Below, piece after piece: positions 1 through 16,745 of a stretch of DNA of 16,745 bases. Location of the stretch: the NCBI GenBank assembly GCA_048882385.1, contig JBHLRQ010000071.1, forward strand, positions 1 to 16,745, written 5' to 3'. Position 1 is the stretch's first letter; each line of letters begins with the position of its first letter. The notes beneath the pieces were generated by a model, which did no database searches, had not been told where the DNA came from, and was given only the letters and a program-made list of their open reading frames with translations. The stretch comes from Candidatus Thorarchaeota archaeon (GTDB lineage: Archaea > Asgardarchaeota > Thorarchaeia > Thorarchaeales > Thorarchaeaceae). Made by a program: the position numbers and the translations under genes.

Positions 1-3000
1 TCAGCAGGAAGTTGTGCATACGACATTGTTCTCTTGATGACTGTTACCCTCACAAAGGTAGAATCATCAAAGTAGTAAGGTGCAGAACCATCATCCCAAT
101 CTACGAAGACTGTGACATTATAGTTTGATACTAGTATGCCACCAAATTCTGTTGAGTTGATCAAAACGTCGAATCCTTCTCCAGCGGGAACGATTGTGTA
201 CTGACCTGAAGTAAGTAAGACGCCTCCAGCCCAAATATCGATATTTGTCGTTGTGATTGATGTGATTGCCTGCTCCCGTATAAGATCCATATACATGAAT
301 GAGAATTGGACAATGTCGAGATACTGCGTTTGTTGAGGTGCAGTGGTTATCTCTACATTTGTTTCTCTTCTAATTGTGAACGTATTGAGAATCATATCAG
401 CATTGTCATGATATGGACTCTGCGCAGGATTCCAGGTTGCTTCGACGCGAATCTGAGTTAATCCGATTCCATCTAATGCAGTTGTATTAACAAGAACTAG
501 GAAGAATCCACTGCCCTCATCCACTATCGTGTACTGTGTTCCAAATGTAAGAGGTGTTACTCCCTTGAAAACATTGATTGATTCAGCAGAGATTCCAGCC
601 AAGCTATCAGTATCGAAGTATTGAATTCTGAAAGTCACATTGTCAAGGTACTGAGCGGGATCTGGAGCATCATCCAGAACTACATCTGATGCCCTAGTTC
701 TTAGCTCAAAGAAGAGATACGTATCATCAGCACCGTAGAATGGAGCTTGATTTGCATAGGTCGCTCGTATCTGAAGCGAATACTGTATACCAATTGATAA
801 CTCAGGATGGTTATAAGTTTCAATCGTTAGTGTATAGTATTGGAATGCTGGTTCCCATTGAACGGAGAAATACCAAACTCCTGCTGTTAGAATTTCAAGT
901 GTAACATCGCCAGTTCCGTTTCCAATAACTCCGAGAGTAGCAAGATCCTGGAAGTTGATTGTGTAATCTAGAGAATTGTTGTAGGGAACTTTTCCAATGG
1001 GTTCACCAGATAGGAGAGTGACGCGGTATCTGACCGTGAACGATCGCGTCGAGCTTGCATCAGGTATATAGAACTCAGTCTTAGTGAGTACGACTCTTAG
1101 ACTGTAGGTTCCTGGGTTGGTGTAGTATGTAGTGTTGAGAGTTACATTATATTCTCCCCCTATGATAGGACTTACAGAATAGAATGCACCAGGTATAGCA
1201 ACTAGATCATCATAGATTGTAACCACTGCACCAGAAATACCTGTGGTTGAGCCACCGGTTATATCAGTCCAGTTTAGAATAAACCACACACTATCACCAT
1301 ACGATGTAGGAGCAGGTGCTTGATAGTCAAGAACAGTCTGTCGTGATGTCACTGTGATGAAGATGGTTCGTCCCGTCCTGTTTGTGTAGTAGGGAGCGCC
1401 AGTCCACACAACATTCAGTGTGAATGATTTCTGTCCTAGAGGAGCAGCAAACTGACTGGTATCGAACGACACTGTGAATTGGTGAAGGAGTAGATCATAT
1501 GAAATAGAATAATCAGCCAAACTTACGGTAATATCCAATGAAGGATTATCATCAATTGGATCACTTCCACCTCCTGTAACATCCTCATATGAGAAGATTA
1601 GAGTTGCATTTTCCCCATATGGAGCGGGTGTAGGTGGCACAATTGACACTAAAGTGTCCCTGGGTAAGATTCGCACTGAAATGACATCAAAACGATTGGT
1701 GTAGAATGGAGCTACTCCATCAGTCCAATTGATGTATACATTCATGTATATGAGACCAGTTTCACCAAATATTGTTGTACTGAACGAGATTGAATAATTA
1801 CCAGGTTGAAGCACATCATCAATCTCAAGAATTGTGACTTGCCCTAGATCGACACTTACTCCTTGAAAACTAACATAGATATGCACATTTCCGCCGCCGT
1901 AGCTGCTGTTAGTGATTCCTAGACCACTAGTTTCACTGTAGAAGAAGATGTACTTCATTGAGCCGAGATACGGAGTCGGTTCAGAAGCCTGCAATAACGT
2001 GAGTTGTGAATCGATTCCGATAATGTTTACTGATGTTGTTGCAGTTCGGTTCTCATATTGTTGAGTTGGACCTGTCCAGTTGAAATAGATTAAGAAATTC
2101 TGGATACCTTTGGGGAACTGAGATGCATCAATCTGCAGGGTGTATATGCCACCTGTATTGCTAACGAGAGTGGAAGATATCCAATGGGTTCCATTCCAAA
2201 CATACTGTTGAATATTTGCCAAGTCATCTATTCCAGATTTACTGTCAAAGTCATAGTATCTTAGTGATATGTTTACAATTCCATTGAAAGGTGTTGGCTC
2301 AGGAGCACTTACAACATTGAATATTGTGACGTGTGTTCTGATATTGACCTCAACGTCACACGAAACCTGGAAATAGTTGGGGTCATTTGTGAAAGTGAAG
2401 GTTATTACATAAAGCCCGAGAGGATCGGAACCTGTTGTTGTGAATGTTACCTCATACCTAGACCCATCCCATACAACGGTTACAGCAGTGGAACCAGGCC
2501 ATCCAGAAACTGATGGAGTGATACTTGGGATTGGAACACCGTTGTCGAGATCTGTGTAGTCGATATATATCACGTGTACGTTCCCAACTGGGATATCGAC
2601 TGAAATTGCAGATGGTTGGGCGTCCGTATGTATTCTAGTGACTATGATCGTTATGATGACACTCTTCTCAGCATATCCATCTGCATTGGCAGTAAGGGTT
2701 AGTTGATGAGAACCAACTGATAGCCCAACAACGCCAATCTCAACATCATAGTTTCCATTAGACACGTGGACAAAATCAATCCAACCAGTTGACGCGGTGA
2801 TTGTTGCAGTTGTGATTCCGACTCCTCGATCACGGTCCTCATAATAGAGGGTGACACTAACATTGAAGTTTAGAGGAGTGGAAACGGTGTAGAGGTTTGA
2901 AGTCAGATCACTGTCAGCTGGTTTGTACTCGAAGTTGACTACAAACTGTGTTGACTGATAGAGTGAACTAGACGGGTCAACTTGAACTGTTATCGAATAG

Positions 3001-4440
3001 ACTCCCTCTGAGAAGAAGGAGGCTCCAATTAGGATGTTATATACTCCATTTCCGAAGGGAGTTATAGTGGCAGAAGGATATCCTGCAATTGCTATGTCGG
3101 AGGATAGTCCATCAATGGTATCACCATAGAAAACTCCAGGTTCAGAAACTTCTACAGTGATGTTGACAGTAAAATCATCACCATTCGGAAATAGCAATTT
3201 GCTTGGATTGTTATATGCAAGAATACTAAGACTGCGTATTGATATTGTAAATACATAGATTGAGGGATTTTGATAGTTAGAACTCGACATGGTTAAAATT
3301 ACAGATACTGATCTTCCTCCAACAGGCCAACCGCTTGTGTCTAGGGTGATATCATAGCTTCCAAAGTCAGCGAAACTAACAGTCCAGTCAAGGCGAATGT
3401 TGGACACAGCTCCAATTGGGACAGCACCTCCAGTGTCCAAGTCAATCAGGACCACAGTGAGATCTGTTGAGTTCCCATAGGGAGTTATCATGTCACCAAG
3501 AACATTGATTGATGTATAATGAGCTCGAATCGTAATCGTGAAAGTATACTGCATAGGTGGATAGTAGTCTGAATTAGCCATTACAACGGTCAGATTGACC
3601 TCATGAGCTCCAACAGCCCATGTATCTGTTGTCAAGGTCATCGCGTAGCTAAACAGAGAGCTTCTAACTTGGCTTCCACCCGCATAGTCAAAAATGAACT
3701 GATTTACATTCGAAATATCAGGAATGGTGCCTAAATCAATATCCACAAGAAGAACTGTCAATGGAGTGTTCTCTCCATAAGGCATAACAAAATCCCCTGA
3801 CGCTGAAACAGCTGTATAATGAGGTCTCAATGTAAATGTGATATCGACACTGTCCATCTGCAAGAGAGATGCAGATTTTGATGCATTGATTGTGTAGGTA
3901 TGTAAACCAACTGATAGTGCTGTCGTTGGAATAGAAATGTTGTACCATCCGACTCCTTGAGCGGGTATAGTAACTGGACTACCATCATCAAATGTAATTG
4001 TTGCACCTGAAATTGGAGCACCTGAGAACGAATCGTAATAGAATAGTGTTGCAGTAAATGGCGAGTCCAATGGAGTTGTTTCAATATATGCGTATGAAAG
4101 TTCTGTTGGATGATATAGGTCAAGTAGGAAGTAGTTTGATACGTCATTATAGAATGGATGCTCAGAACTGATTTCTATCCTCCAACGTTTGTTATTCTGT
4201 AAATCAGTCGTATTAACCGCAATTCCATATTCTCCTGCACCTAAATCATTGAGCTGAAGTGTCGTAGGAGTTCCTAAAATAGTCCAGTTCATGGTAATTT
4301 CTGACCCTGTTACTCCAGAGTGTAAAATATCGTCTGTTAGATCCACTTTGATATATATGACATCATTGACAGTCGCATCCGCAATTCCTCCACCAACAGC
4401 ATCCAATGGAGAGAGAATATCAATAGAAACATCATGTTGG
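1..4440 (-). repeat. Array of ~14 Ig-like modules (stalk of protein B, continues off the window)
   Basis: Module-for-module correspondence with A modules 1-14, e.g. RPHYTAVSASGDFVMPYGENTPL vs RSHYTAVTVSGDLATPYGQDTPL, and LPRDTLVSIVPP vs LPRDTLLSITPP. Confidence 0.7.
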
Positions 4441-6365
4441 ACAATGAAGTTACGCTGGTACAAGCCAGTCATGGCACTAACAGAACTACCTGAGTCGTTG
4501 TAATAAGCTGTTACTGTCCATAGACCTGCCATTGCTGACACATCTGCAATCTTCTTGATGGATGAATCAGGTGATTCTCGAACAACTTCAGAGCCTACAG
4601 AATAGAACAGATTAGTATTATACACATTCTGAAATTCTGCGGCAATCCAAGCACCACTTCTAATTCCATTTGAAACTCGAACCTCATCCATCCGACCGTT
4701 AAGGTACGCACGGACTCCTACTACCTGATCAATCCATGAACCTCCAATACCCCAGGTGCCATCATATGCAAGCTGTGCAGTGGCTAATGCTCCATATGAC
4801 CCGGGTGTGTCGTCAACTGCTCGAACATAGATTTTGTTATTTTCAGGAGTAGTGGCATCCATTGTACAAGCATAATAGTACCATGTGTTAGCCTGCCAAG
4901 AGTTTTGAGCTGTATACTTATACTTCTGACCTGCTGCATCATTCTCAACTTTGAAAACCATTGTACCTGCTGGTGCAGTTGAAGTATAGTCTGCCCCCAC
5001 CAAGGCAACGTGCATATCGTTATCACCGTTAAGATACTTCTCAAAGAGAAGTACTGTGTTTGGTGAAAGACTATTGTGAGCTGCGTCGAGTCTAAACCAT
5101 CCAGAGATGGTAACGCTACCTGTTGGTTCAAGATCCTCGGTATTTGAAACACTGATCCAATCGTCTGTCCCATCAAAGTCTTGTCCGTATCCCACAATAC
5201 CGTTGGTAATAACATTGCCAGTCTGTGTACCATCGTAATCGCCAGATGTCGAATCTTGATGAACACCTGTAGACTGCTCATCAATAGTGCTATCATCTAG
5301 ATGCCAGACTGCTGCAAAGCTATTGGTCCAGACATCAGTGGGATTTTCCTGAGATCCAATCGATGGATTTCCATAGTACATATTGATGACTGTATTCACA
5401 GAACCTGTAAGGTTAGTCTTGACCCAAGCAACAAGATGAGCCTGAGTTGGACTATAGCTCTGATCAAAAAGTTCAATCTCATGTGAGAGAACATTTCCTC
5501 CTGATACAAAGATGATGTCATCACCATCACTCTGTACTTTGGTCTTAAGGTCAGTATCATAGACATCAATCAGAACTGGAAAATTCAACAGGTTTTGTCC
5601 AAGATGTCGTGAGCGATCAACTGTGAAGTCTTTCCTGTATGTAAATGACTGAAGAAGGTGAGAGGTGGCTCCAACTGTTGTATTCGTTGTCGAATACCAG
5701 GTTGATCCTGAGGGGTCTGTTAGCGTGAATGTTGTGGCCGCTCCAGTTATCCAAGTACTTGTAGTTCTAAACATCATCTCATTAGTCAAATCGAATATTG
5801 CTGACGTAGAAAGTGTACCACCAGAAATTCCTAGGTTGAGATCACTGATAGTATTTATACTACTAAACTCAATCTTCCATAAACCAAAGGTGTCTACAGC
5901 CGAGCTGAAGACAGCAAGACTGCCACCCAGATAAGACCAATCAGTAGAAATTGTCTTTTCAACACCTACGGGATTTGTGACTGAAATGGGTGTCCAATCA
6001 GTAGATTGGTAGTCGATACTGAAGCTCAAGCTCTCAACCTCAGCTGGAGGTGAAACAAGAACATATGCAGTCCAAGTCACAGAACTGGCATTAGATACCG
6101 AGAAAGATGTTCCAGATACGAAATCCAATGAGAGTGTAGTTCCACTGTCTATCCATGAAGAGCTATTGGTAAAAGTGCCAGAGAATGATACAGCTAGAGG
6201 AGCCCCAGTACCCACATAAGTGCCTGAATCAGCAATCTGGTTCCTATGTGCTAGTGGATCTAAAAGTCCAGAATCTGTAAAGGGGATTCCAGAACCGGAG
6301 AGATCAACAAGAGTGAATACGAATATCGTGACTAATACTAAGGAAAGGAATCTACTGCTTCTCAT
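1..6365 (-). CDS. Giant surface protein / adhesin B, paralog of A (signal peptide + DUF2341-LamG + Ig-like modules); 3'-partial, >=2121 aa
   Basis: Manual translation from ATG 6365: MRSSRFLSLVLVTIFVFTLVDLSG...VSPPA...LTDPSGSTWY...FTYRKD...MYYGNP...AVWHLDD...DFDGTDD...GRMDEVRVS. The same frame at the window start reads DWDDGSAPYYFDDSTFVRVTVIKRTMS, matching A's DWNAASIPYYVDDSTTVKVTITRRTML. Absence from the ORF track is consistent with no in-frame stop before position 1. An alternative in-frame ATG lies at 6377, and an in-frame TGA at 6389-6387 bounds the 5' end. Confidence 0.92.
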   Translation of the reverse strand, partial: MRSSRFLSLVLVTIFVFTLVDLSGSGIPFTDSGLLDPLAHRNQIADSGTYVGTGAPLAVSFSGTFTNSSSWIDSGTTLSLDFVSGTSFSVSNASSVTWTAYVLVSPPAEVESLSFSIDYQSTDWTPISVTNPVGVEKTISTDWSYLGGSLAVFSSAVDTFGLWKIEFSSINTISDLNLGISGGTLSTSAIFDLTNEMMFRTTSTWITGAATTFTLTDPSGSTWYSTTNTTVGATSHLLQSFTYRKDFTVDRSRHLGQNLLNFPVLIDVYDTDLKTKVQSDGDDIIFVSGGNVLSHEIELFDQSYSPTQAHLVAWVKTNLTGSVNTVINMYYGNPSIGSQENPTDVWTNSFAAVWHLDDSTIDEQSTGVHQDSTSGDYDGTQTGNVITNGIVGYGQDFDGTDDWISVSNTEDLEPTGSVTISGWFRLDAAHNSLSPNTVLLFEKYLNGDNDMHVALVGADYTSTAPAGTMVFKVENDAAGQKYKYTAQNSWQANTWYYYACTMDATTPENNKIYVRAVDDTPGSYGALATAQLAYDGTWGIGGSWIDQVVGVRAYLNGRMDEVRVSNGIRSGAWIAAEFQNVYNTNLFYSVGSEVVRESPDSSIKKIADVSAMAGLWTVTAYYNDSGSSVSAMTGLYQRNFIVQHDVSIDILSPLDAVGGGIADATVNDVIYIKVDLTDDILHSGVTGSEITMNWTILGTPTTLQLNDLGAGEYGIAVNTTDLQNNKRWRIEISSEHPFYNDVSNYFLLDLYHPTELSYAYIETTPLDSPFTATLFYYDSFSGAPISGATITFDDGSPVTIPAQGVGWYNISIPTTALSVGLHTYTINASKSASLLQMDSVDITFTLRPHYTAVSASGDFVMPYGENTPLTVLLVDIDLGTIPDISNVNQFIFDYAGGSQVRSSLFSYAMTLTTDTWAVGAHEVNLTVVMANSDYYPPMQYTFTITIRAHYTSINVLGDMITPYGNSTDLTVVLIDLDTGGAVPIGAVSNIRLDWTVSFADFGSYDITLDTSGWPVGGRSVSVILTMSSSNYQNPSIYVFTISIRSLSILAYNNPSKLLFPNGDDFTVNITVEVSEPGVFYGDTIDGLSSDIAIAGYPSATITPFGNGVYNILIGASFFSEGVYSITVQVDPSSSLYQSTQFVVNFEYKPADSDLTSNLYTVSTPLNFNVSVTLYYEDRDRGVGITTATITASTGWIDFVHVSNGNYDVEIGVVGLSVGSHQLTLTANADGYAEKSVIITIIVTRIHTDAQPSAISVDIPVGNVHVIYIDYTDLDNGVPIPSITPSVSGWPGSTAVTVVWDGSRYEVTFTTTGSDPLGLYVITFTFTNDPNYFQVSCDVEVNIRTHVTIFNVVSAPEPTPFNGIVNISLRYYDFDSKSGIDDLANIQQYVWNGTHWISSTLVSNTGGIYTLQIDASQFPKGIQNFLIYFNWTGPTQQYENRTATTSVNIIGIDSQLTLLQASEPTPYLGSMKYIFFYSETSGLGITNSSYGGGNVHIYVSFQGVSVDLGQVTILEIDDVLQPGNYSISFSTTIFGETGLIYMNVYINWTDGVAPFYTNRFDVISVRILPRDTLVSIVPPTPAPYGENATLIFSYEDVTGGGSDPIDDNPSLDITVSLADYSISYDLLLHQFTVSFDTSQFAAPLGQKSFTLNVVWTGAPYYTNRTGRTIFITVTSRQTVLDYQAPAPTSYGDSVWFILNWTDITGGSTTGISGAVVTIYDDLVAIPGAFYSVSPIIGGEYNVTLNTTYYTNPGTYSLRVVLTKTEFYIPDASSTRSFTVRYRVTLLSGEPIGKVPYNNSLDYTINFQDLATLGVIGNGTGDVTLEILTAGVWYFSVQWEPAFQYYTLTIETYNHPELSIGIQYSLQIRATYANQAPFYGADDTYLFFELRTRASDVVLDDAPDPAQYLDNVTFRIQYFDTDSLAGISAESINVFKGVTPLTFGTQYTIVDEGSGFFLVLVNTTALDGIGLTQIRVEATWNPAQSPYHDNADMILNTFTIRRETNVEITTAPQQTQYLDIVQFSFMYMDLIREQAITSITTTNIDIWAGGVLLTSGQYTIVPAGEGFDVLINSTEFGGILVSNYNVTVFVDWDDGSAPYYFDDSTFVRVTVIKRTMSYAQLPA
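4626..5645 (-). other. DUF2341 + LamG cassette of protein B
   Basis: FTYRKDF...NFPVLI...DGDDIIFV...LSHEIELF...AWVK...INMYYG (5645-5370), then AVWHL...DFDGTDDW...SGWF...WYYY...LNGRMDEVRVS...WIAAEFQN. Confidence 0.82.
6297..6365 (-). other. N-terminal Sec signal peptide or signal anchor of protein B
   Basis: Basic n-region MRSSR followed by hydrophobic FLSLVLVTIFVFTLV. There is no clear AxA site, lipobox or twin-Arg motif, so cleavage is uncertain. Confidence 0.75.
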
Positions 6366-6371
6366 GATCGG

Positions 6372-6375
6372 CACC
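6372..6375 (-). promoter_or_regulatory. Possible Shine-Dalgarno core (GGTG) for ATG 6365
   Basis: Minus strand reads GGTG-CCGATC-ATG, an archaeal-type GGTG(A) core 6 nt before the ATG. Confidence 0.3.
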
Positions 6376-6444
6376 ATCTTGATATTTCATTGCCCACCTG
6401 CGCGGCATGACAACTAACGTATCATTACACCAGAATTGATTGCA

Positions 6445-6455
6445 CTATATTTCAA
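6445..6455 (-). promoter_or_regulatory. Weak TATA-like element upstream of gene B
   Basis: Minus strand reads TTGAAATATAG about 80 nt upstream of ATG 6365. It is an imperfect match to the archaeal TTTA(A/T)A box. Confidence 0.2.
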
Positions 6456-6478
6456 TGAATTTCGTGGATAATGTCAGC

Positions 6479-6494
6479 TATTTTTCGAAAAATA
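6479..6494. promoter_or_regulatory. Perfect 16-bp palindrome in the A-B spacer (possible dimeric regulator site or hairpin)
   Basis: TATTTTTCGAAAAATA is its own reverse complement. The palindrome is seen directly; its function is inferred. Confidence 0.35.
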
Positions 6495-6533
6495 AAGAGA
6501 ATGAGGAAGGAGAAGCTTTCCCTACTCCTTCCT
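6488..6533 (-). terminator. Putative terminator of gene A: hairpin over the stop codon followed by a U-rich tract
   Basis: A 9-bp inverted repeat AGGAAGGAG (6504-6512) / CTCCTTCCT (6525-6533) has a 12-nt spacer containing the TAG. On the minus strand it is followed by CATTCTCTTTATTTTT. Confidence 0.45.
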
Positions 6534-9500
6534 TCCTTCTAGACTCTTAACAAGCTCATCAACCAGTTCTCTGGGCAGTTCCTTCGCCTGTTCAATGATA
6601 GTATCGATTTCATACGGAGGTACACCCTTCTGCTGAAGTTCCTTTCGAAGTTCCTCGATTTCATGCACACTCATTCTTTCAGATTTGGTGTCTTTGACTT
6701 CCTCAAAGACCTCCTCTTCAGGTTCCTCCTCTTCTTCAGGTATGACTGCTTCTTTCTCTTCTTCTTCTTCAAGGAACACAGTTTCTAGTGAATCTTTTTC
6801 TATATGATCTATGGGTTTGACTTCCTCCTCAGCACCAAGTCGTCGAAGAGCTTCAGTTTCGATAGCAGCGAGGGTTTCTTCGATGGTTTTACCCTCGCGA
6901 CGAGCAGCACGAATGGCTTCCTGCATAATGACTTCTTTCACGAAAGCTGCTTGCTCACTCATTTTCATCTTGACAATATCAGCTTGGAACTCATCAAGTT
7001 CTGCAGGACTCAGATTGGTGAGGATGGCAAGTTGCATCAAGAGTTCACCCATCTCTGGTACTTCAATTGGTATGGCTTCCTCAGGCATCTGGGTTGCTGT
7101 ACGAGTGATTTTCAACTTCTCATATGTATCATTGAATAGTTCAGCCACAAGTTGCTGTCTACTCTTGACATCACTGACTGGTTTGGGCACCTTGCCCTTT
7201 CTTAGTGTCTTAATCTGACCATTGATTTGACGGATTCTCTTTGGAACACTCCAGACTCTTACGTACAAACCAAGCAATGTTATGATTATAAAAGCAGTCG
7301 GCAATCCAAATGTGTAAATCTGTTCAAATAGTATGTCAAAATCATTTGGTTCTGTACTGATTCTGAAATTAAGCTCAACATCATCATGAAATTCCCTACT
7401 CATAGTTATTTGCATTATTGCAGGATTATCGCTGTATCCTACAGCCAGAATCACTACACGGTAGTATCCGCCACCAAGAGATGCATTGTCATAAATATTT
7501 GCAGTTGCTCCTTGAGTGATTGTGAATATGAACCCTTCACCACCGGAATTATGCCAAGTGTCATTAACAAAAAAGTCGAATGTAATTTCGTTTCCGTTTA
7601 TTATAGTGTATTCGATATTTACCTCGGGATCATATGATTCTCCATTTATCAGAATTTCAGTAGGTGTAGAAATTATTCGGATTCTGATCTCGATTGCTTG
7701 AAAAGATCGATGTTCATCAAATATTTCGATTGTAAATCGGAAGTACTGGTTTTCGAGAATCACTGGTCCTCCATATTCAAATCCGTAGAGCGACAAGTCA
7801 TTTGTATCAAATGTGAAATTATAGAAGCCAGAACCAGTCCTGAACAGAATTGCCTTTGCACCTGAGAAATATGAAGGAGCACGTAGTTCCGTGAATTCGG
7901 TGAAGTTGGCATTAATTATTCCTCCTGATAGTCCTCCAACAGGACTCATGTCATTGTAAAACAGCGAAATATCAATGGAATCATACATAGTTAGTTCCAG
8001 AATTATAGCACCAGCTTCGGTGGAAACATAGTTTTGTTGTGGATATTCAATTATCAATTCAGTAGGTCTCTCTATAACATTGATGAAGAAGCTGAATGTG
8101 CGTTCTTCATAGTTTGCTAGTATAAAGGACGTAGTAATTTTCTCTCGGATGCCTGAATCCAGAATCGTTGTGTCGATGTACAATACATACGTTCCATTTC
8201 CGAGGTCTGAAGCGTTAAAGTCAAGGTTGCCATAGTTGTATGTAACTTCTGCTCCGGATACAGTCCTGAGATTATAGTCATCAATGAAATCTAGTGGTAT
8301 GAATCCAGTGTATCCCCAAACCATCTCCTGTGTTTCTGTTGGACCATCAATACTTGTAGGTATCTTCTTGACTGTAAGTGTGATACTCGTGATTGTTGAA
8401 GCAAGAGTTGTATTAGTTGGCTCCGCACGGAAGCTGACTCCAATTGTCCCAAATCCGATAGAAGAAGTATTGAATGTGAGTGTCCATAGACCACTTCCCA
8501 GTGAAGTAAAGTTGTAGTATATTCCTCGCGTAATATCAATCCAAGACACTTCTCCATCATTGATTTCCATAAAGAATGCAGCTGTACTTGATGTTGTGAA
8601 ATTAAGCTGCAATGTGACATTTTGCAGATAGTAGACTTCGATATTTGTAGTTCCTCCAAGAACAGCCAATTGGGTAGCTGTTTGTTCTACAAATATCTTG
8701 AACTGATCAATAGCGGGGTCGTAGTTTCGAAAACTGGCAAATATTTGAATATTGTATGATTGCAATGCTTCAAGAATAGTGGCAGTCCCTGGTATTGTAA
8801 CATTCCACTGAAATGTGAATGAGCTGTAGTTCATGTAGTATTTGGTCCCATTCAATTCTGCATAGACTTGTAAAGTTCCTGATACGTTTCGCACCTGCGA
8901 ATCGTCTATTATACTCCCACTTCCGACCTCACGAAGTTCAATCGCAATATCAAGAGGATCACCCCTATTGACTTGAGCCACAATATCCGTAGGCTCGATG
9001 ATTACAACCTCGCTTGGGATTGTCATCACTATCAGTGTGATAGTTGCGATGGCATCCGTGTATTTGTCTTTACTAGCAGTTATTGTAACGACAAAAGTTC
9101 CGGCACCAAGAGGTGTAGTGTCAATAGAATCAGTGTATGTTCCAGTAGATCCAATTTCTGACAAAGTTCCAATAAATACATCATTCAAAATGGACCATGT
9201 AATACTATCCGCATTTGGTATTGTAATTCCATTTAGAAGATCGTTGTAATTCAGCACTATATCTGTTGAATTCTTCCAGTAAAGACTAATTGAGGTGTCT
9301 CCAAGAGGAACTTCTAATTCTGTATTTATTGGAATCAAAGTGAATTGTGGTGTGACTTGAACAGAAGCATACGGTGTGCCAGCAGAAATAATTCTCAATG
9401 TATATGTCCCAAGAGTTGGTAAGTCTGAAGTCGTGAAGCTGATATTGTATTTTCCAGATGTGATATATTCGAAAACATTCAAGTTTTGAGGACGAACTCC

Positions 9501-12500
9501 ATTGAAGACATAGGTAATACTATAATTAAGAATACCTTCTCGACCAGTGATAGGCGTTCCATGGTCCAAATCAGTCAATGTTATGTTCAATGAAACAGTA
9601 TCAGTATATTCAACTCCCGAGGAGGGTGCAATTGCATCAACTGAAAGAGAAGTTCTTATAAGATCAACAAGTCCGGTCAAAGTGACAGTTGAGCGATTGG
9701 TATAGAAAGGCACCAATGTGGGGTCCCATTGTACTGCAATGTCAAAGTAGAAGGTTCCTGTTCCTGTGAGTTTTGTCGTGTAGACGTGGAAATTGTAAAC
9801 ACCTCCACTTCCAGATGTATAGTAGTCGGAGACCAGGACCAGATTATGGTCTTGGCAACTGAATTGAATGATTGCACCAGTGATTGGAACTCCACTGTCA
9901 ATATCAGTCACAGTGATTGAGATATTCAGGATGTCACCTTTTGGAGTTCGTTCAATCTGGTCAGTTTCAACCAACATTGTTCGCCTTGTTATTGTGACCT
10001 TAACAGTAGTTGAGTCATCAACATAGTATGGAATAGATGCTGCATTCCAGTCAACTTTAACAATTATGGAAAGACCGCTTATGGGTGCTGCAGACAAATC
10101 AGAGGATGCAATTGTGAGTTCAAAGGATGAACCTGTTGGGGTGACTGTATATAGTAGCGGATTAATCTCTGTCATGTTGCTCCAGTAAAGGTGGATATTG
10201 GTTCCAGTTATCGATGTGATGGGCACAGATGCATCCAAGTCTATGTATTGGAAAGTAAAAGTCACATCGTCAAGATAGAGTGTCTGTGCGGGTGGTATTG
10301 TGATATCGATATTTGTTTCTCTCTCTCTAACTGAAACTGTCACAACTCGAGTCCTATTATTGTGATAAGGAGCTCCGGACCAGTTGGCGTGAACTGATAG
10401 AGGATAAGATGATGGACTTCCTAGGGCTGAAGTATCAACCATGAGTGTATAGAATCCTGCAGCACCGGGGGTCACTGTATAATCAGAGATTGGAGTCAGA
10501 GATGGAATTGTAATGGTAGCACCAGCTATTCCAGCACCTCCAGCATCAACATCACCAAAGAAGACAGCGAATATCGCATTCTCACCATAGGGAGTCGTCT
10601 CAGGTTCTGTAGTTAGACTCAACGAAGATACTCGATTTCTCAGCTGGAATGAAACTATCAACTCATCAGAAGAGAAGAATGGTGCCTGGTACGTATAGCT
10701 CATTCTGAGAGTCAGATAATATGTAATTCCAGTTTCCAATCCTAGATTATATGTTTCAACCTCGAGGAGATAGTTTCCAAAACCAGCCTGCCAATTCACA
10801 GTGAAGTACCAAGGACCAGAGCCAGGACCACTTAGAATCTCCAGCGTAACTTCTGCAGAGTCATTTGCTATGATTCCAGTGGTGAACAGGTCTTGGTAGT
10901 AGAGTAACGCGGAAATCGAAGAGTTATAGGGAACTGTAGATATTGGTTCACTAGCAAGGAGCGCGAGGCGTTCTCGAACATTAAAAGTCCTGGTTGTGAA
11001 AGCATCGGATATTCCAGTAGAGCCAATAGATATACCGACACGCAGACTGTAGTCGCCAGGTGTTGCGGCGAATGTTGTGTTTAGAGTGATTCGATAGATC
11101 CCCAGTGTTGGGTATTCAAATAGACTGTATTTTCCAATATCAATAGGTGTTACACCTTGGTAAAGTGTTACAGTTGCACCTGTGATTGGATCCGATGCTC
11201 CTCCAGTTATATCAGTCCAAGTGACATTGAAGATGACCTCATCGAGATACTGAGTTGGAGCAGGTGCAAGATACTCTAGGAATGTCACCCTATTGCTGAT
11301 AGTTAAGTAGACTATCCTTCCTGTACGATTGGAATAGAACGGTACTCCATCCCATGTCACACTAAGTTGAATCACGTGAAGCCCAACATCTCCGAACTGT
11401 GTAGTATCGAAAGTGATGGTATATGTTCCTCCAACCTCAACATATCCAAATGTGATATTGGATGTGATGCTGAGTTTCGGATCGTCAAATATGTAAGAAC
11501 TCGACCCTCCTGTAGTATCTTCGAAAGTGAATGTGAATGACCCTTGTTCTCCATAGCTTGTTGGAGAAGGAGGAGTTATCGATAGTAGAGTATCTCTGGG
11601 TAAGACTCGTACTGAGATGACATCAGTTCTGTTTGAATAGAATGGAGATACCCCCTTTGACCAATTCACAAAGACATTCATGTAGATAAGTCCGGTCCGA
11701 CTAAAGATATTTGTATCAAAGGATATGGAGTAGTTGCCAGGTTCTGTGGATGAGAGGTCAGTGATGGTGATATCAGCAGGATTGATGGATTCTCCTTGGA
11801 ACATCACATAGATGAAGACATTCGATCCTCCAGTTATGTTATCGATACCGATTCCACTGAACAAATCACTATAGAAGAAGATGTAGCCCATGTTCTCATC
11901 ATATGGTGTTGGCTCTGACCCTACTAGAAGTGTAAGGGCGGAGTCTCTTCCAACAACATTTGCTGTCGTTACAAAAGACTTGTCTTGATACTTTGGTACA
12001 GCTCCAGTCCAGTCTGCATAAACAGTAAATGTCTGTAATCCCAATCCAAACTGTGAAGCTGATACTTGGATGATGTAGTATCCAGGAAGAATATCATAAC
12101 CATAGCTCGAGATGACAACTCCAGTTGTATTCTCAACCCAGAAATCAACATCAGGTGACTGTATTCCAACAGTACTGTCAAGGTCACCATAATAGACTGA
12201 AATATTGAATATACCAATCGTGCTTGTTGGTTCAATTGAGCTTACAATTCTGAAATCAGTGTTATGAGTTCGTATTGAAATAGTGATATTGAAAGTTGCA
12301 GCTTGATAGTTGACACCTTTTGAGAATGTGAAGTATTTAACTTGGTTTTGAAATGTTCCATCAGAGTCTGAAGTATGGAATGTAATCTTATACCTCTGTG
12401 TTCCAGGTTCATATACTACGGAGAAGTTACCCCAGTTTGATATGACCTGCGTAAATGGACTAGTGAGGTTGTCTATAGCAACAAGTCGGTCAATATCTGT

Positions 12501-15500
12501 ATAATCAACATAGAAGAAGGGCGAATTACCAATCGGAATGTCCAGTGAACCAACGGATGGAACAATAGAAGTGAAAGCAGCACGGATTACAACTCTGAAT
12601 TGCAGCGTTTTGGCATCAAATCCAGATTTATCAGCTGTAAGATCAATAGTATGGGTACCAAGAGCCAGGGATGACACATCAATCCAAACCTCATAGAGTC
12701 CGCCTCCAATATCTGTCCAATTACCAGTTCCAGGGGGTCCTATCCAAGTCGGATGGTCGGGGGATGAGATTGTAGCACCATCAATACCAGTTCCAAAATC
12801 AGCATCAGTATAGTTGAGCAAAATCTTGACATTAAGCTGATATGGTGTTGTGACTTGCGGATAGTTTGGTGATGTCAAGTAACTAACAATCTCACGGTAC
12901 TCAAATTGAATCACTAGGAATGTGTTTGCAAACCTATTGTCAGCTGATGTGAAATAGACAGTTATCTGATAGATTCCACCACTGAATGCAGATTGATCAA
13001 TTGTGAGCTGATATCTTCCAATTGCTTGTTCCGAAGTATCAATGGCAATCGTATACCCAGGAACTGAAAACTCGCCAGCGAGTCGACCTGTGACTGGATC
13101 GCCAAAGTAGGGTCCTTGCTCGCTTGTATTTAGTCGGAGGTAGACCTGAAAGTCAGTACCTATGGGGAAGTTTAGTGTAGATGGATCATGATACATGAGA
13201 GTGGTCATTCTTCTTATTGTGACAGTGAACTGATAGTTTGTTGGAGCGCTATAGATCGTTCCACTCATTGTAACAACTACTGTTACCGTCCATGTACCAA
13301 CACCCCAATTACTCGTGTCCAATGTGATACTATAACTGCTGAAATCGGTGAAGGTTGGAGCTGGGGCATATTGTAGTCTGATATTTGATACAGAACCAAT
13401 CGGAACAGTACCACCAGTATCCAAATCAGTCAGACTAATTGTGAGCGGAGTCTGATTACCATAAGGTTGTGTTGTGACTCCAGTTACACTCAGTGAAGTT
13501 CGATGAGCACGAATTGTCACATCAAAAGTGTATGGTAGTGGAATTCCAATATCAGTGTTTGACATAGTCACAGTCAGCGTTACTGAAACAGTTCCTACAG
13601 ACCATGAATTTGTATCTAGAGTCATGTCGAAGCTGAATAACGAGCTTAGAATTTGTTGACCATAACTGGACGTGAAATTGAAGTTGTCAACATCACCGAT
13701 TAACACCGATGTTCCTGTGTCCAAGTCAAGTAGGAAGACAGTGAGAGGTGTATCCTGACCATAGGGAGTGGCAAGGTCACCAGAAACAGTTACTGCAGTA
13801 TAGTGGCTCCGTAGAGTAAATGTCACACTTACACTTGCCATATAGACATAAGACCCAGCTTTTGTGGCATTGAAGATGTATGGATGATTACCCAAGCTTA
13901 GCGCTCCAGTCGGAATTGAAATGTCATATGTCCCGTCGGTATTGTCGATAAAAGCCACTCCAGAACCATCAAGCGTTATTGTGGCTCCGACTATAGGTGC
14001 ACCGGAATATGTGTCAGTGAATGTGAGTGTGGCTGTGAAGTCGTATCCTGCAGGAGTTGTTGTGACACCATCAGCATCTAACTCTGTTGTATGATAGAGG
14101 TCCAGAGTAAAGGAGTCGGTATCATTGTTGTAGAATTGATGATATGATTCGACATCAAATCTCCATTGTTTCGCGTCTCCCAAATCGGATGTTTCAAGGA
14201 CTTTCCCATACATTCCATTACCATAATCATCGAAGGTGATTGTTGAAGGACTTGTCCAGTTCATCGTCACTATTGCACCTGAAACACCTTGGGTGGTTAT
14301 GGTGTCTGTAAGCTGATACTCTACAATCAGTGAGTCTCCAGCTGTCTTAATGGAAACTGTGGGTTTTTGCTTTGACAGAGCTGTTGGGTGTCGAACAATG
14401 AATGTCTTTTCAAAAAGACCTGTTTTGTCTGTGACCGTGGCGCCAGTATCATTGTAGTATGCTTCTGCAGTCCAGACACCTGCTGGTGCTGAGGAATCAA
14501 TTGTCTTTGTGATAGTGTGTTCAGGAGATGTTCTTTGTTGTTCAGGTAAACGTCTCCCAAAAGTATTCGGACCTGACAATGCACTGATAAGATTACGATA
14601 CTCATTCTGCAACCAACCGGTTGTCCTCACAGTACTGCTCACTCGAAATTCATCGAGTTGACCACTAAACCAGCTTGTAAATGAACCGCTAGTTTCCCAG
14701 TTGCCACCTCCAAGTCGCCATTCCTCAGTATAAGACATGTTTGCTTGCGTGGGACTGCCAACCTGACCAGCATTTGTGTCCCAAGCTGCATTCACCCAGA
14801 TTGCGTTATTTGAGGGATTATCCTCATCCGCATAGCATCCAATGAAGTACCAACCGGGATTCCATGTAGTTCTTTGTGTCCATTTGTAAATCGGACTGTT
14901 CGGTGAACTCTCAACCTTGAAGACAAGCGATCCGTTTGGCACAGTTCCTTGTCCATAGTCCTGTCCAACGAGGGCTATAACCATGTCATGGTCAATGTCA
15001 ATATACTTCTCCATGATGACTTGTGTGTTGGGTGATAGATCATTATGAGTCGTTGAGATTCTGAACCAGCCTGTAATGAAGACATCTCCATCAGGAGTCA
15101 ATTGATTGGAAATTGAGATATAGTCATCAATACCATCAAAGTCCTGAGCATAACCTGCTCGACCAGATAGATATTCAACATTTCCATTCTGAACACCATT
15201 GTATCCATTGCCCGTTGAATCTGCATGGATTGCTCCTGATGCTTCATTCACAACATCTTCTCCAAGATGCCAAACAGCATCAAAGTCAGAAGACCATACT
15301 CCCATTGGATTCTCTAAGTTGTCAACTACTGGACTTCCATAGTACATCGAGATTGTCTTGTCTAAGGAGGAGGTGATATTCATCTTGACCCATGCCACTA
15401 ACTTCGCTTCCGAAAATGTATAGTCCTGATTGAAATACTCAATTTCATGGTCTAATATTATATCTCCATCAGCAAACAGAATGTCCGAACCATCTGCTCG

Positions 15501-16745
15501 AACCTTGGCCGTATTATGCAAATCGGTATCATCATTGAATTGGATACGAACTGGAAAGTCCGTGACATCACCATAGGTGTTGTTTGCAAAGATTACAATA
15601 TCCTTTCTATACCTAAAGGATGGGAATTTGTGGTTAGGATCGGTTGTTGTCTGATTATATGATGAATACCAAGTGTTACCATTAGGGTCGATCAGGTTCA
15701 AACCAGCGCGTGCACCAAGAATAGTGGGTGTTGTGATTGTGAATTTCGCGAGATCATTAATATCATAAGCTGGGGATGTGAGTTGAACGTCCTGTAAAAA
15801 GTTCCAGCTAATGAATTTGAGTGTCCAAACACCCCAAAAGTCGATTGATGCTGGGTTGAGAGTGAGAGTTCCTCCTTGATACCACCAATCTGAATCCACT
15901 GTTTTTGGCTGGTTTATTGGATTGAGCACAGCTGTGGGTTTCCATTCAGCACGGGGATATTCCACAGTGAATCCCATTGAAGTTGCACCTGCAGGAGGTG
16001 ATACCATGACCTTTGCAGTCCAGTTAACGATGCTTGCTCCACTCTCAATGAAGTAACTTACTCCTTCATTGAAATCAGTGTCCATAGTCTGTGCTTCGCC
16101 ACCAATATCCATTGTGATGGTCACATCCATAGACACAATTGTTGGAGAGGCTGTTGTAAAGATGACCTCTGTACTTCCGGCATCATTCCAAGTAGCAGTG
16201 ATGGCGCTCTCTGTCCCAACCGAATAGAATCCAGACGGATTGTTTTGGTTTGAGTATTCCGTGTCAATCCATGCCTCGGAACGTACGAGTGTTGTCAGAC
16301 GCGCTTCATCAATAATGCCAGCCCAGTATCTGCTATTCAGAAGGTCATTATTACCAATAACGAACATGGCATCTGAATCATAGATTGAAGTTCCTGTATA
16401 TGATCTATCAATTATGAGAACACCATCAAGATATGCCAATATCTCGTGCCCTGTTCGTGATGGATCCCAGGACCAAGATACGTAGTGCCAAGTGAAGTTA
16501 GAAGCTGTTGCTGAGCTGCTATAACTTACACCAGCACCTTGAGGATCTGCCCAAACTCTGGTTGTGATGTGATTGGTGGGATCAAGTCTTAGTGTCATGA
16601 TGTGTTGGGTGGACGTTGTGGTTGTTGATTTTGAGAATATCCTTGCATCCTTGTCTAAGGTTCGATAGAACCATGCACTCATTGTGAACTGAGTCCATTC
16701 ATCAGTGTCGATTTGTCCAATAGATAGTATATCATCAGTCCCATC
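6522..16745 (-). CDS. Giant single-pass membrane surface protein / adhesin A (LamG + DUF2341-LamG + ~22 Ig-like modules + TM + cytoplasmic tail); 5'-partial, >=3407 aa
   Basis: The 3386-aa ORF in the track stays open upstream of 16682 to the window edge (DGTDDILSIGQIDTDEWTQFT-MSAWFY, the DGxDD start of a LamG domain), so the true start lies outside the window. It ends at TAG 6524-6522. Domain calls are by manual motif recognition, not by HMM. Confidence 0.93.
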   Translation of the reverse strand, partial: DGTDDILSIGQIDTDEWTQFTMSAWFYRTLDKDARIFSKSTTTTSTQHIMTLRLDPTNHITTRVWADPQGAGVSYSSSATASNFTWHYVSWSWDPSRTGHEILAYLDGVLIIDRSYTGTSIYDSDAMFVIGNNDLLNSRYWAGIIDEARLTTLVRSEAWIDTEYSNQNNPSGFYSVGTESAITATWNDAGSTEVIFTTASPTIVSMDVTITMDIGGEAQTMDTDFNEGVSYFIESGASIVNWTAKVMVSPPAGATSMGFTVEYPRAEWKPTAVLNPINQPKTVDSDWWYQGGTLTLNPASIDFWGVWTLKFISWNFLQDVQLTSPAYDINDLAKFTITTPTILGARAGLNLIDPNGNTWYSSYNQTTTDPNHKFPSFRYRKDIVIFANNTYGDVTDFPVRIQFNDDTDLHNTAKVRADGSDILFADGDIILDHEIEYFNQDYTFSEAKLVAWVKMNITSSLDKTISMYYGSPVVDNLENPMGVWSSDFDAVWHLGEDVVNEASGAIHADSTGNGYNGVQNGNVEYLSGRAGYAQDFDGIDDYISISNQLTPDGDVFITGWFRISTTHNDLSPNTQVIMEKYIDIDHDMVIALVGQDYGQGTVPNGSLVFKVESSPNSPIYKWTQRTTWNPGWYFIGCYADEDNPSNNAIWVNAAWDTNAGQVGSPTQANMSYTEEWRLGGGNWETSGSFTSWFSGQLDEFRVSSTVRTTGWLQNEYRNLISALSGPNTFGRRLPEQQRTSPEHTITKTIDSSAPAGVWTAEAYYNDTGATVTDKTGLFEKTFIVRHPTALSKQKPTVSIKTAGDSLIVEYQLTDTITTQGVSGAIVTMNWTSPSTITFDDYGNGMYGKVLETSDLGDAKQWRFDVESYHQFYNNDTDSFTLDLYHTTELDADGVTTTPAGYDFTATLTFTDTYSGAPIVGATITLDGSGVAFIDNTDGTYDISIPTGALSLGNHPYIFNATKAGSYVYMASVSVTFTLRSHYTAVTVSGDLATPYGQDTPLTVFLLDLDTGTSVLIGDVDNFNFTSSYGQQILSSLFSFDMTLDTNSWSVGTVSVTLTVTMSNTDIGIPLPYTFDVTIRAHRTSLSVTGVTTQPYGNQTPLTISLTDLDTGGTVPIGSVSNIRLQYAPAPTFTDFSSYSITLDTSNWGVGTWTVTVVVTMSGTIYSAPTNYQFTVTIRRMTTLMYHDPSTLNFPIGTDFQVYLRLNTSEQGPYFGDPVTGRLAGEFSVPGYTIAIDTSEQAIGRYQLTIDQSAFSGGIYQITVYFTSADNRFANTFLVIQFEYREIVSYLTSPNYPQVTTPYQLNVKILLNYTDADFGTGIDGATISSPDHPTWIGPPGTGNWTDIGGGLYEVWIDVSSLALGTHTIDLTADKSGFDAKTLQFRVVIRAAFTSIVPSVGSLDIPIGNSPFFYVDYTDIDRLVAIDNLTSPFTQVISNWGNFSVVYEPGTQRYKITFHTSDSDGTFQNQVKYFTFSKGVNYQAATFNITISIRTHNTDFRIVSSIEPTSTIGIFNISVYYGDLDSTVGIQSPDVDFWVENTTGVVISSYGYDILPGYYIIQVSASQFGLGLQTFTVYADWTGAVPKYQDKSFVTTANVVGRDSALTLLVGSEPTPYDENMGYIFFYSDLFSGIGIDNITGGSNVFIYVMFQGESINPADITITDLSSTEPGNYSISFDTNIFSRTGLIYMNVFVNWSKGVSPFYSNRTDVISVRVLPRDTLLSITPPSPTSYGEQGSFTFTFEDTTGGSSSYIFDDPKLSITSNITFGYVEVGGTYTITFDTTQFGDVGLHVIQLSVTWDGVPFYSNRTGRIVYLTISNRVTFLEYLAPAPTQYLDEVIFNVTWTDITGGASDPITGATVTLYQGVTPIDIGKYSLFEYPTLGIYRITLNTTFAATPGDYSLRVGISIGSTGISDAFTTRTFNVRERLALLASEPISTVPYNSSISALLYYQDLFTTGIIANDSAEVTLEILSGPGSGPWYFTVNWQAGFGNYLLEVETYNLGLETGITYYLTLRMSYTYQAPFFSSDELIVSFQLRNRVSSLSLTTEPETTPYGENAIFAVFFGDVDAGGAGIAGATITIPSLTPISDYTVTPGAAGFYTLMVDTSALGSPSSYPLSVHANWSGAPYHNNRTRVVTVSVRERETNIDITIPPAQTLYLDDVTFTFQYIDLDASVPITSITGTNIHLYWSNMTEINPLLYTVTPTGSSFELTIASSDLSAAPISGLSIIVKVDWNAASIPYYVDDSTTVKVTITRRTMLVETDQIERTPKGDILNISITVTDIDSGVPITGAIIQFSCQDHNLVLVSDYYTSGSGGVYNFHVYTTKLTGTGTFYFDIAVQWDPTLVPFYTNRSTVTLTGLVDLIRTSLSVDAIAPSSGVEYTDTVSLNITLTDLDHGTPITGREGILNYSITYVFNGVRPQNLNVFEYITSGKYNISFTTSDLPTLGTYTLRIISAGTPYASVQVTPQFTLIPINTELEVPLGDTSISLYWKNSTDIVLNYNDLLNGITIPNADSITWSILNDVFIGTLSEIGSTGTYTDSIDTTPLGAGTFVVTITASKDKYTDAIATITLIVMTIPSEVVIIEPTDIVAQVNRGDPLDIAIELREVGSGSIIDDSQVRNVSGTLQVYAELNGTKYYMNYSSFTFQWNVTIPGTATILEALQSYNIQIFASFRNYDPAIDQFKIFVEQTATQLAVLGGTTNIEVYYLQNVTLQLNFTTSSTAAFFMEINDGEVSWIDITRGIYYNFTSLGSGLWTLTFNTSSIGFGTIGVSFRAEPTNTTLASTITSITLTVKKIPTSIDGPTETQEMVWGYTGFIPLDFIDDYNLRTVSGAEVTYNYGNLDFNASDLGNGTYVLYIDTTILDSGIREKITTSFILANYEERTFSFFINVIERPTELIIEYPQQNYVSTEAGAIILELTMYDSIDISLFYNDMSPVGGLSGGIINANFTEFTELRAPSYFSGAKAILFRTGSGFYNFTFDTNDLSLYGFEYGGPVILENQYFRFTIEIFDEHRSFQAIEIRIRIISTPTEILINGESYDPEVNIEYTIINGNEITFDFFVNDTWHNSGGEGFIFTITQGATANIYDNASLGGGYYRVVILAVGYSDNPAIMQITMSREFHDDVELNFRISTEPNDFDILFEQIYTFGLPTAFIIITLLGLYVRVWSVPKRIRQINGQIKTLRKGKVPKPVSDVKSRQQLVAELFNDTYEKLKITRTATQMPEEAIPIEVPEMGELLMQLAILTNLSPAELDEFQADIVKMKMSEQAAFVKEVIMQEAIRAARREGKTIEETLAAIETEALRRLGAEEEVKPIDHIEKDSLETVFLEEEEEKEAVIPEEEEEPEEEVFEEVKDTKSERMSVHEIEELRKELQQKGVPPYEIDTIIEQAKELPRELVDELVKSLEGRKE
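6525..7259 (-). other. 245-aa cytoplasmic tail of protein A (basic juxtamembrane segment, helical unit 1, Glu-rich linker, helical unit 2)
   Basis: After the TM, composition switches from Thr/Ser/Tyr-rich beta sequence to E/K/L/Q-rich helical sequence. A low-complexity stretch EEEEEKEAVIPEEEEEPEEEVFEE lies at about 6700-6770. Confidence 0.8.
7260..7319 (-). other. Single transmembrane helix of protein A
   Basis: IYTFGLPTAFIIITLLGLYV is followed immediately by basic RVWSVPKRIRQINGQIKTLRKGK (positive-inside rule), giving type I topology. Confidence 0.85.
7330..14395 (-). repeat. Array of ~22 divergent ~95-135 aa Ig-like beta-sandwich modules (stalk of protein A)
   Basis: A recurring module start R-x-T-x-hydrophobic...P-x-(P)-Y-(G/L), an internal DxD-x-G-x-x-I-x-GA and G-x-Y-x-hydrophobic strands occur about every 300-340 nt. 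Repetition is at the protein level only. The Ig-like fold is inferred from size and alternating Thr/hydrophobic pattern. Confidence 0.7.
14592..15617 (-). other. DUF2341 + LamG cassette of protein A
   Basis: DUF2341-like FRYRKDI...TDFPVRI...DGSDILFAD...LDHEIEYF...AWVK...ISMYYG (15617-15336), then AVWHL...DFDGIDDY...TGWF...WYFI...FSGQLDEFRVS...WLQNEYRN. Confidence 0.82.
16210..16745 (-). other. LamG-like / ConA-like lectin jellyroll domain 1 of protein A (partial)
   Basis: Motifs DGTDD...FTMSAWF...WHYVSWSWD...YLDGV...FVIGN...WAGIIDEARL...RSEAWIDTEYSNQNNP are typical of Laminin_G_3-type domains. Confidence 0.85.

Follow-up and report, generated by a model that had tools for sequence, protein, structure and literature searches.

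The stretch of DNA analysed in this study, called the window below, is the entire contig C71 (16,745 nucleotides, nt) of a Candidatus Thorarchaeota archaeon, whose metagenome-assembled genome of 3.7 Mb consists of 256 contigs and is estimated to be 95% complete. Its minus strand carries two giant paralogous open reading frames (ORFs), which we call A and B. Our results suggest, with a confidence a little above even, that A and B are separate long adhesion fibres with lectin-type tips that share one cytoplasmic docking tail, and that they are tandem paralogs of a giant type I membrane glycoprotein family specific to Thorarchaeia. The two rods would project as separate fibres from a cell that has no S-layer. 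A beta-sandwich module generally spans about 4 nm, and on this assumption a fibre would be ~90 nm long if extended. The heads, differing in valency and specificity, would be presented to glycans on partner cells, particles or matrix, and the shared tail would dock all members of the family onto one putative cytoplasmic partner. The tandem arrangement would have arisen from duplication, and the near-equal stalks would reflect common descent together with strong purifying selection, acting on gene length separately in A and in B, rather than a register between the two.

Architecture of the A and B proteins

A and B are predicted from their sequences to be type I membrane proteins, in which a signal peptide, a head, a rod of modules, one transmembrane (TM) helix and a cytoplasmic tail of ~240 amino acids (aa) follow one another (Table 1). 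Signal peptides were found in B and, for A, on a second contig of the same genome (C95), and the TM helix has a K/R-rich, positive-inside flank. In B the signal peptide consists of a basic n-region followed by a hydrophobic helix in the AlphaFold2 (AF2) model.

The head units were counted with a hidden Markov model (HMM) built separately for the combined DUF2341 + LamG unit, which occurs twice in A and once in B. Besides its two head units, A has an N-terminal region of ~530 aa; the DUF2341 half of its first unit lies on C95 (ORF residues 596-652), and its second unit is a homologue of the B unit for which a fold match was obtained. The AF2 model of B residues 1-860, computed from a 17-row alignment with a mean predicted local distance difference test score (pLDDT) of 80.1, is all-beta beyond the signal helix. 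Residues 352-583 of this model superpose on domain 4 of AbnA (5hon_A), a carbohydrate-binding jelly roll, with Z 18.9 and a root mean square deviation of 2.6 Å over 194 aligned residues (VIA-align), and the jelly roll matches the lectin-like N-subdomain of clostridial toxin binding domains with Z 16-17.7. It suggests that the B head adopts the ConA-like lectin/LamG jelly-roll fold, at the level of the fold only. Among the structures that Foldseek returned for the whole B model are MG domains of alpha-2-macroglobulin, an archaeal S-layer protein (7ptp_A, E 5.2e-10) and titin Ig, these three with E values of 3e-11 to 5e-10, and the ligand-binding region of SraP (4m00_A, E 8.8e-9).

Sequence families gave little for the heads. 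Pfam DUF2341 (PF10102) scored just under its cut-off of 23.4 bits in A (22.7), B (22.6) and the N-terminal frame on C95 (20.5); precomputed PF10102 matches exist for many orthologues, and precomputed PF13385 or PF02210 matches for several. At E <= 0.1, Pfam returned for A and B only DUF2341 and a sub-threshold hemicentin GBD, with no match of Laminin_G_3 (PF13385) in the window's A or B, and NCBIfam had zero matches for either protein. For the N-terminal 716 aa of A, no PDB relative was found by sequence, and Pfam gave only the sub-threshold DUF2341.

The stalk is a tandem array of individually distinct modules. A module HMM of 99 positions, iterated from one A module, counted 22 modules in A, 14 in the visible part of B and 21 in B orthologues of full length; the five or six modules nearest the membrane score weakly (15-26 bits). 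The modules match none of the cadherin, integrin, FN3, Big or PKD repeat families (Pfam at E <= 0.1, NCBIfam). The ectodomain contains 21-22% Ser + Thr and 0.1% Cys. A has 55 N-x-S/T sequons, where shuffled sequences have 35.4 +/- 4.7, and B has 31, where shuffled sequences have 23.7 +/- 4.2. This Ser/Thr-rich, Cys-poor and sequon-enriched composition indicates an extracellular character of the ectodomain.

After the TM helix, the tail is made up of a basic juxtamembrane motif, a helical core, an acidic linker and a three-helix bundle. An alignment of 40 tails from four paralog types, named A to D, has 19 invariant columns, every one of which is present in the tail of B on a further contig (C102). 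Tail identity is 55% between A and B and 36-42% between A and the C and D types, and the C-terminal three-helix bundle is conserved across all four. In the AF2 model of the tail (mean pLDDT 78.2), one long helix, continuous over fragment residues 46-93 (pLDDT 83-96), crosses the membrane and extends past it; five helices make up the core, and a disordered acidic linker leads to the C-terminal bundle.

The fold of the tail was searched in several ways. Foldseek found no PDB structure at E <= 0.001, the best Z of a wide VIA-align search was 5.9, within the noise for helical models, and the ESM Atlas gave no usable match. The best E of a PDB profile search was 0.24, and Pfam at E <= 10 returned only scattered weak families for all 40 tails (RecX_HTH and the Bap31 coiled coil among them). 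A likeness of the C-terminal three-helix motif to SAP/HeH motifs was considered and dropped, as no such family stands among the Pfam matches listed. D-type proteins carry a second copy of the motif farther downstream in the same frame, for example in our genome (C44:3791-3961) and in two relatives (G024:C6:35044-35211 and G011:C28:32468-32638), and others too.

Table 1. Features of the A and B genes in the window, with the evidence for each
Feature	Position (nt)	Strand	Basis
Gene A, 3' 83%	6522..16745	-	ORF; 3,407 codons plus stop, 5' end open, stop at 6522-6524
A head unit 1, LamG-type half (window residues 1-179)	16209..16745	-	Unit HMM; 31% identity to B 402-598
A beta-rich N-beta region (residues 198-376)	15618..16154	-	BLASTP; homology with B starts here; the matching B residues 53-233 are all-beta in AF2
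A head unit 2, DUF2341 + LamG-like jelly roll (residues 377-731)	14553..15617	-	Pfam 22.7 bits; unit HMM
A stalk, 22 tandem beta-sandwich modules of ~100 aa (residues 786-3131)	7353..14390	-	Iterated module HMM
A TM helix (residues 3146-3165), then K/R-rich cytoplasmic-side stretch	7251..7310	-	Sequence and AF2
A juxtamembrane basic motif and conserved helical tail core (residues 3165-3305)	6831..7253	-	40-sequence alignment; pLDDT 70-92
A variable acidic linker, predicted disordered	6687..6830	-	pLDDT <50 at fragment residues 217-264; Glu-rich, poorly aligned columns
A C-terminal three-helix bundle	6531..6668	-	Helices 271-283, 288-300 and 303-316, pLDDT ~90
A-B spacer, 144 nt	6378..6521	-	Read by eye; inverted repeat and T-tract after the stop of A
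Gene B, 5' two thirds	3..6377	-	ORF; ATG at 6377, 2,125 codons, 3' end open
B signal peptide (residues 1-30)	6288..6377	-	Sequence; helix 10-23 in AF2; kept in orthologues
B N-terminal beta-sandwich region, the tip of B (residues 53-233)	5679..6221	-	AF2 all-beta, pLDDT mostly 66-90
B single DUF2341 + LamG/ConA-like unit (residues 245-597; jelly roll 352-589)	4587..5645	-	Pfam 22.6 bits; VIA-align
B stalk, modules 1-14 of 21 (residues 661-2113)	39..4397	-	Module HMM

Reconstruction of the complete genes

Both genes run off the contig and were followed on other contigs. The last 77 nt of the window (16669-16745) are 100% identical to the end of C95 (L023:11386-11462). The terminal open frame of C95 ends in 25 residues that are the first 25 of A; it starts with a signal peptide, holds the first ~707 codons of A, and shares 65% identity with the N-terminal part of the A orthologue (4,086 aa) in the related genome G011. 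Upstream of it on C95 lie genes for ThiI and a DUF2334 protein, matching the gene order in relatives. Because of this overlap, the signal-peptide start, the identity to the G011 orthologue and the shared upstream genes, the length of A is put at ~4,100 aa. An exact 77-nt overlap is the trace that a k-mer assembler leaves at breaks, and here the break falls inside the repeated LamG-type unit of A.

The left end of C71 has no overlap with any other contig of the genome. Contig C102 opens with a C-terminal frame of 524 aa, which matches the G011 B orthologue over residues 2672-3187 with 73% identity, and the genes downstream of this frame (RadB-like, AAA, FAD/FeS oxidase subunits and malic enzyme) are the same as in relatives. 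Compared with these orthologues, B should have ~3,170-3,190 aa in total, with ~1,060 codons beyond the window edge and a TM helix plus tail at its C-terminus. About 540 aa (1.6 kb) of B, between C71 and C102, are unassembled. A contig from an independent run spans the A-B junction (5790-6921) with 0 differences, and further contigs from other runs reach up to 1,325 nt beyond position 1. A misassembly or chimera was ruled out by these contigs and by the same gene order in 12 other genomes. As a side observation, contigs of one run (X6) carry single-base differences clustered in two stalk modules (12522-12750 and 3377-3513), and the other runs match the window; these differences are strain-level variation inside the repeat rod.

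Register of the stalks, module number and descent

A and B align by BLASTP in one colinear block, with 910 of 2,103 residues identical (43%), 4% gaps and E = 0, starting at A residue 198 and B residue 57. By region, identity is 55% in the tail, 43% in the shared ectodomain and below 30% in the membrane-proximal stalk. A first-pass annotation of the window had described a tandem giant pair with near-constant offsets between anchor motifs, and all five offsets were reproduced exactly (VSPPA 9948, YRKD 9972, MYYG 9966, PRDT 9936 and RTM 9951 nt). It had also seen no module gained or lost between A and B over the part shown, and this is borne out for the window-visible part: in the module identity matrix of the complete G011 orthologues, A01-A15 and B01-B15 correspond one to one, with 30-63% identity on the diagonal and ~19% off it. 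Its other structural claims agree with our data as well. The signal peptide of B stands where the shared region begins (from about B residue 57), and the extra LamG domain upstream in A is the LamG-type unit of head unit 1. The lectin-type head, beta-sandwich stalk, single TM helix and structured tail are in line with the predicted jelly roll, the module models and the AF2 tail. B, expected to run ~3.4 kb past the left edge to a TM helix and tail, would do so over ~3.2 kb and ends in this way on C102.

Past module 15 the register is off by one in the G011 matrix (A17~B16, A20~B19 and A21~B20). In three complete pairs, the alignment offset between A and B rises from ~826 to ~901 residues, and this growth fits a register shift of one module beyond module 15. 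As a whole, A exceeds B by one module (22 against 21) and by an N-terminal extension of ~850 aa.

Within orthogroups the module number hardly varies. Twenty-one modules were counted in 38 of 43 full-length B proteins (3,115-3,185 aa), 22 in 16 of 18 short A forms (4,050-4,128 aa) and 31 in 10 of 11 long A forms (5,007-5,058 aa); the fragments and other paralogs among the 120 proteins, 48 in all, were left unclassed. The long A forms carry a mid-stalk block duplication of ~970 aa, and one A has 36 modules. In other genera, an A of 31 or 36 modules adjoins a B of 21 (G032, and pairs on the same contig or with adjacent locus tags).

The tree of the shared head region places B as one clade (support 92) beside short A, inside a clade with support 98, and the long A lineages are basal. 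Since B and short A are nearest relatives, the near-equal count of 22 and 21 is expected from descent. In the tail tree, A and B fall together in one group (support 93), apart from the C type and from the D type, so the A/B and C/D pairs arose by separate duplications. A single pair duplication behind both A/B and C/D was considered and is ruled out by the tails, in which A groups with B and not as A-C and B-D, a pattern that gene conversion between neighbours could mimic. On these trees and counts, the matched A and B stalks appear best explained by common descent with conservation of length. The best-supported view would be that each gene is under strong constraint for its own length, equal length between the partners not being required.

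Distribution of the family

The profile of the tail found only 190 proteins at E <= 1e-3 among 1.84 billion representative proteins, and the match was always C-terminal. The homologues are labelled Candidatus Thorarchaeota almost throughout, and the few that bear labels of other Asgard phyla belong to the same GTDB family. None of the family members has an annotation beyond hypothetical, DUF2341 or LamG protein. In the class sample, the tail is present in 77 of 81 genomes and in 24/24 of the high-quality ones, with 1-9 tail matches each. A phylum-wide sample of 151 genomes contained the full-length tail in 32/32 genomes of family f1 and 1/1 of family f2, and in these two families only. On this sample, the full-length tail is confined to Thorarchaeia.

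Other Asgard families gave weak partial tail matches only (best E 3.8e-15, model positions 1 to ~182). Six such loci (L182-L187, in families f12, f3 and f9) hold giant ORFs of up to 7,129 aa, whose ends consist of a last beta module, a TM helix, the basic juxtamembrane motif S-[IV]-P...R-K...K-G-K-x-P and then acidic helical repeats. This design next to the membrane may extend across the phylum.

At the syntenic locus the order A then B was found in 13 genomes of 5 genera: g1 (our own genome, G011, G014, G024, G062, G064, G066 and G067), g12 (G053 and G033), g5 (G005), g15 (G032) and g4 (G004). In 18 of the 31 informative genomes, belonging to 12 genera, the locus has a single gene and no B, with the RadB-like or AAA genes directly next to it. 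Among these, G020 was called from the ORF map only, and G003 and G013 from the AAA match only; two further loci were uninformative and stand outside the 31. Most singleton loci carry the long A form. Within our own genus, 8 of 9 informative genomes kept the pair, and G061 is the singleton. Since 18 of 31 informative genomes have the single gene, A probably works without B.

A family that is near-universal and multi-copy in its class could also be mainly structural. In that case at least six giant glycoproteins per genome would build up a glycocalyx or canopy of constant thickness in place of the S-layer, with tiers of 17 and of 21-23 modules and with heads that make lateral or self contacts and do not bind foreign ligands. 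The constancy of module number within orthogroups across deep divergence, the enrichment of sequons and the Foldseek match to the archaeal S-layer protein 7ptp_A fit such a coat, as does the appearance of Asgard cells imaged so far, which are without an ordered S-layer (PMC9834061). On the other hand, some genera keep the gene with a stalk abruptly lengthened to 31 or 36 modules, and the range of 0 to 8 lectin-type head units among paralogs looks more like ligand diversification than a uniform coat. Moreover, a passive layer needs no conserved cytoplasmic tail of ~240 aa. We regard the structural coat as a third possibility, compatible with adhesion, and as the main role of the family we consider it unlikely.

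Other tandem pairs and the question of partnership

Our own genome contains fragments of at least six family members, and relatives provide further paralog types, in which the head content ranges from 0 to 8 lectin-type units. Type C has 8 head units and 23 stalk modules (6,208 aa in G024), and type D has 1 head unit and 23 modules (~4,000 aa). Types E (~2,600 aa) and F (2,600-2,915 aa) have 0 head units and 17 modules each. In 8 genomes D comes next after C on the same contig, and E/F-type matches lie 7.6-8.1 kb apart on the same contig in 20 of 34 genomes of f1/f2. In both C/D and E/F, the start codon of the second gene overlaps the stop codon of the first (ATGA, TAATG and GTGA; L098:13011-13014, L100:9125-9129 and L101:8861-8864), with GGAGG ~8-12 nt upstream. 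These motifs point to coupled translation of the Shine-Dalgarno type in these archaea. A 3,095-aa open fragment on contig C124 of our genome (3-9287, minus strand), with 7 tandem DUF2341 + LamG units and then 5 stalk modules, is the N-terminal part of the C-type paralog. In G022, contig C22 carries four tandem E/F-type genes spaced ~7.7-8.1 kb, in which the E/F pair is re-duplicated.

Three pair types share one layout, with a large-head gene upstream, a small-head gene downstream and equal or near-equal stalks (22/21, 23/23 and 17/17). This layout, the overlapping codons behind GGAGG, the regular spacing of E/F and the retention of the A/B pair in our genus would all suit obligate side-by-side partners, close to the pairing that the first-pass annotation had envisaged for A and B. 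In such a heterodimer or co-assembled fibre, made by A/B and likewise by C/D and E/F, the matched modules would keep two different heads in register. For A and B, several observations speak against this. A B of 21 modules is partnered by an A of 31 or 36 in other genera; A is longer than B even in the short form; more than half of the informative genomes have one gene, mostly the long A, and no B; and A and B are separated by a 144-nt spacer with a T-tract and a TATA-like stretch, in contrast to the overlapping C/D and E/F genes. The tail tree adds that the pairs were duplicated separately and that equal counts are expected by descent. For A and B specifically, the evidence leans against an obligate pair, and we consider one improbable; the idea keeps some weight because of the three parallel pair layouts and the overlapping C/D and E/F genes.

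The annotation had further expected homologs to recur as adjacent pairs with equal module counts. Adjacent A/B pairs do recur, in 13 genomes of 5 genera, and the equality does not hold generally, given the 18 singletons and the B genes beside an A of 31 or 36 modules. Its proposal that the conserved count reflects selection for equal height or register is weakened: A is one module and ~850 aa longer, and the near-equal count follows descent. It had named singletons with freely varying module numbers as one of the observations that would speak against it; singletons do prevail at the locus, yet the module number is fixed within orthogroups.

A stronger form of pairing, in which A/B, C/D and E/F are two-chain receptors of a long-head and a short-head chain with module-matched stalks side by side, the tail coupling ligand binding to the Asgard cytoskeleton or membrane-remodelling machinery, seems to us very doubtful; if true, it would be an archaeal counterpart of the outside-in linkage of integrin and cadherin type, evolved independently or before eukaryotes.

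Spacer and neighbouring genes

In the A-B spacer, an AT-rich, TATA-like stretch was read from the sequence ~70 nt ahead of the ATG of B. An inverted repeat (GGAAGGAG ... CTCCTTCC) encloses the stop codon of A and is followed by a T-rich run (window 6490-6530, minus strand). This arrangement may be a terminator between A and B; a simple pattern scan of the spacer found none, the T-tract being seen by eye only.

The DUF2334 gene lies directly ahead of A on the same strand (L023:8456-9148, plus strand of C95) and encodes a GH57-like protein of 231 aa from a family with a deacetylase/hydrolase-type fold. It precedes A, with ThiI before it, in every relative examined, and a possible role would be glycan handling for the giant proteins. 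The neighbours (ThiI, DUF2334, RadB-like, AAA, FAD/FeS oxidase and malic enzyme) gave no functional lead for A or B. Within the giant genes, or on the strand opposite to them, are several unsupported short ORFs of 106-170 aa (3827-4147, 4784-5296 and 8291-8659 on the minus strand, 6804-7218 on the plus strand), which are most likely chance frames.

Discussion

In this study, we found that two giant neighbouring genes of a Thorarchaeote share a rod and a tail and differ in their heads, and we read them as separate lectin-tipped fibres on one docking tail. Several points count against this reading. The separate action of the fibres is an assumption. Three kinds of tandem pairs have matched stalks, and two of the three have overlapping stop and start codons, which are common for subunits made in a fixed ratio. 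The tail is without a recognisable fold in the Foldseek, VIA-align, Pfam, PDB profile and ESM Atlas searches, and the fold match of the head denotes a lectin-type scaffold and says nothing of sugar binding. The module counts may also be off by one because the HMM was built by us and the membrane-proximal modules match it weakly.

The overall plan resembles eukaryotic giant adhesion receptors, such as FAT-type and other protocadherins, in the type I topology, the tandem beta-sandwich ectodomain with LamG-type domains, the one TM helix and the conserved tail, to which adaptors could dock; integrins are the model of a heterodimer among such receptors. However, A and B contain no cadherin, integrin, EGF or FN3 domain (Pfam at E <= 0.1), their LamG units are distal and not membrane-proximal, and their tail has no known fold. 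Giant repetitive adhesins of bacteria, of the RTX/Bap type (SiiE, LapA) or with lectin and Ig domains (SraP), likewise hold ligand-binding domains off the cell on a tandem Ig-like rod thousands of residues long. These adhesins differ in being secreted and held by the outer membrane or wall, with neither a TM helix nor a cytoplasmic tail, and no RTX, Big or Bap family was found in A or B (Pfam, NCBIfam).

Archaeal S-layer glycoproteins, such as the pentameric 7ptp, also have several Ig-like domains and a C-terminal anchor, and sequons are enriched in A and B. A and B are four to five times longer, with lectin-type heads and a large conserved cytoplasmic domain, and the resemblance is at the fold level only. 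DUF2341 is also known from tip adhesins linked to type IV pili (PilY-type; arCOG03508, methanococcal pilus loci), and Makarova et al. (2016, PMC4858521) think that large surface proteins with DUF2341 act in adhesion. In contrast to pilus adhesins, A and B would be anchored by their own TM helix, and their DUF2341 scores just under the Pfam cut-off; no pilus genes were found at the A/B locus. By architecture, then, A and B would work like giant adhesion receptors, with a rod-and-tip logic like that of bacterial repeat adhesins. They belong to none of these known families because they have no family match, a different anchoring and a new tail. A literature search found no paper describing the family, and supplementary tables of comparative-genomics papers on Asgard archaea may list its orthologous groups.

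Cryo-electron tomography of a cultured Lokiarchaeon described cells without an ordered S-layer and with complex protruding surface proteins, whose identity was not assigned in that description (PMC9834061). A preprint on giant genes states that, among archaea, the Asgard group has the most proteins of more than 10,000 aa. In the family found here, very long rods with lectin-type tips are combined with a conserved and structured domain in the cytoplasm; the family is near-universal and multi-copy in Thorarchaeia. It provides clean material on frozen repeat number, as the counts 21, 22, 23, 31 and 17 are each held across genera, and it is a testable case of paired giant genes. Its members are concrete candidates both for the protruding densities seen on the surface of the cultured relative and for molecules that connect the cell exterior with the interior.

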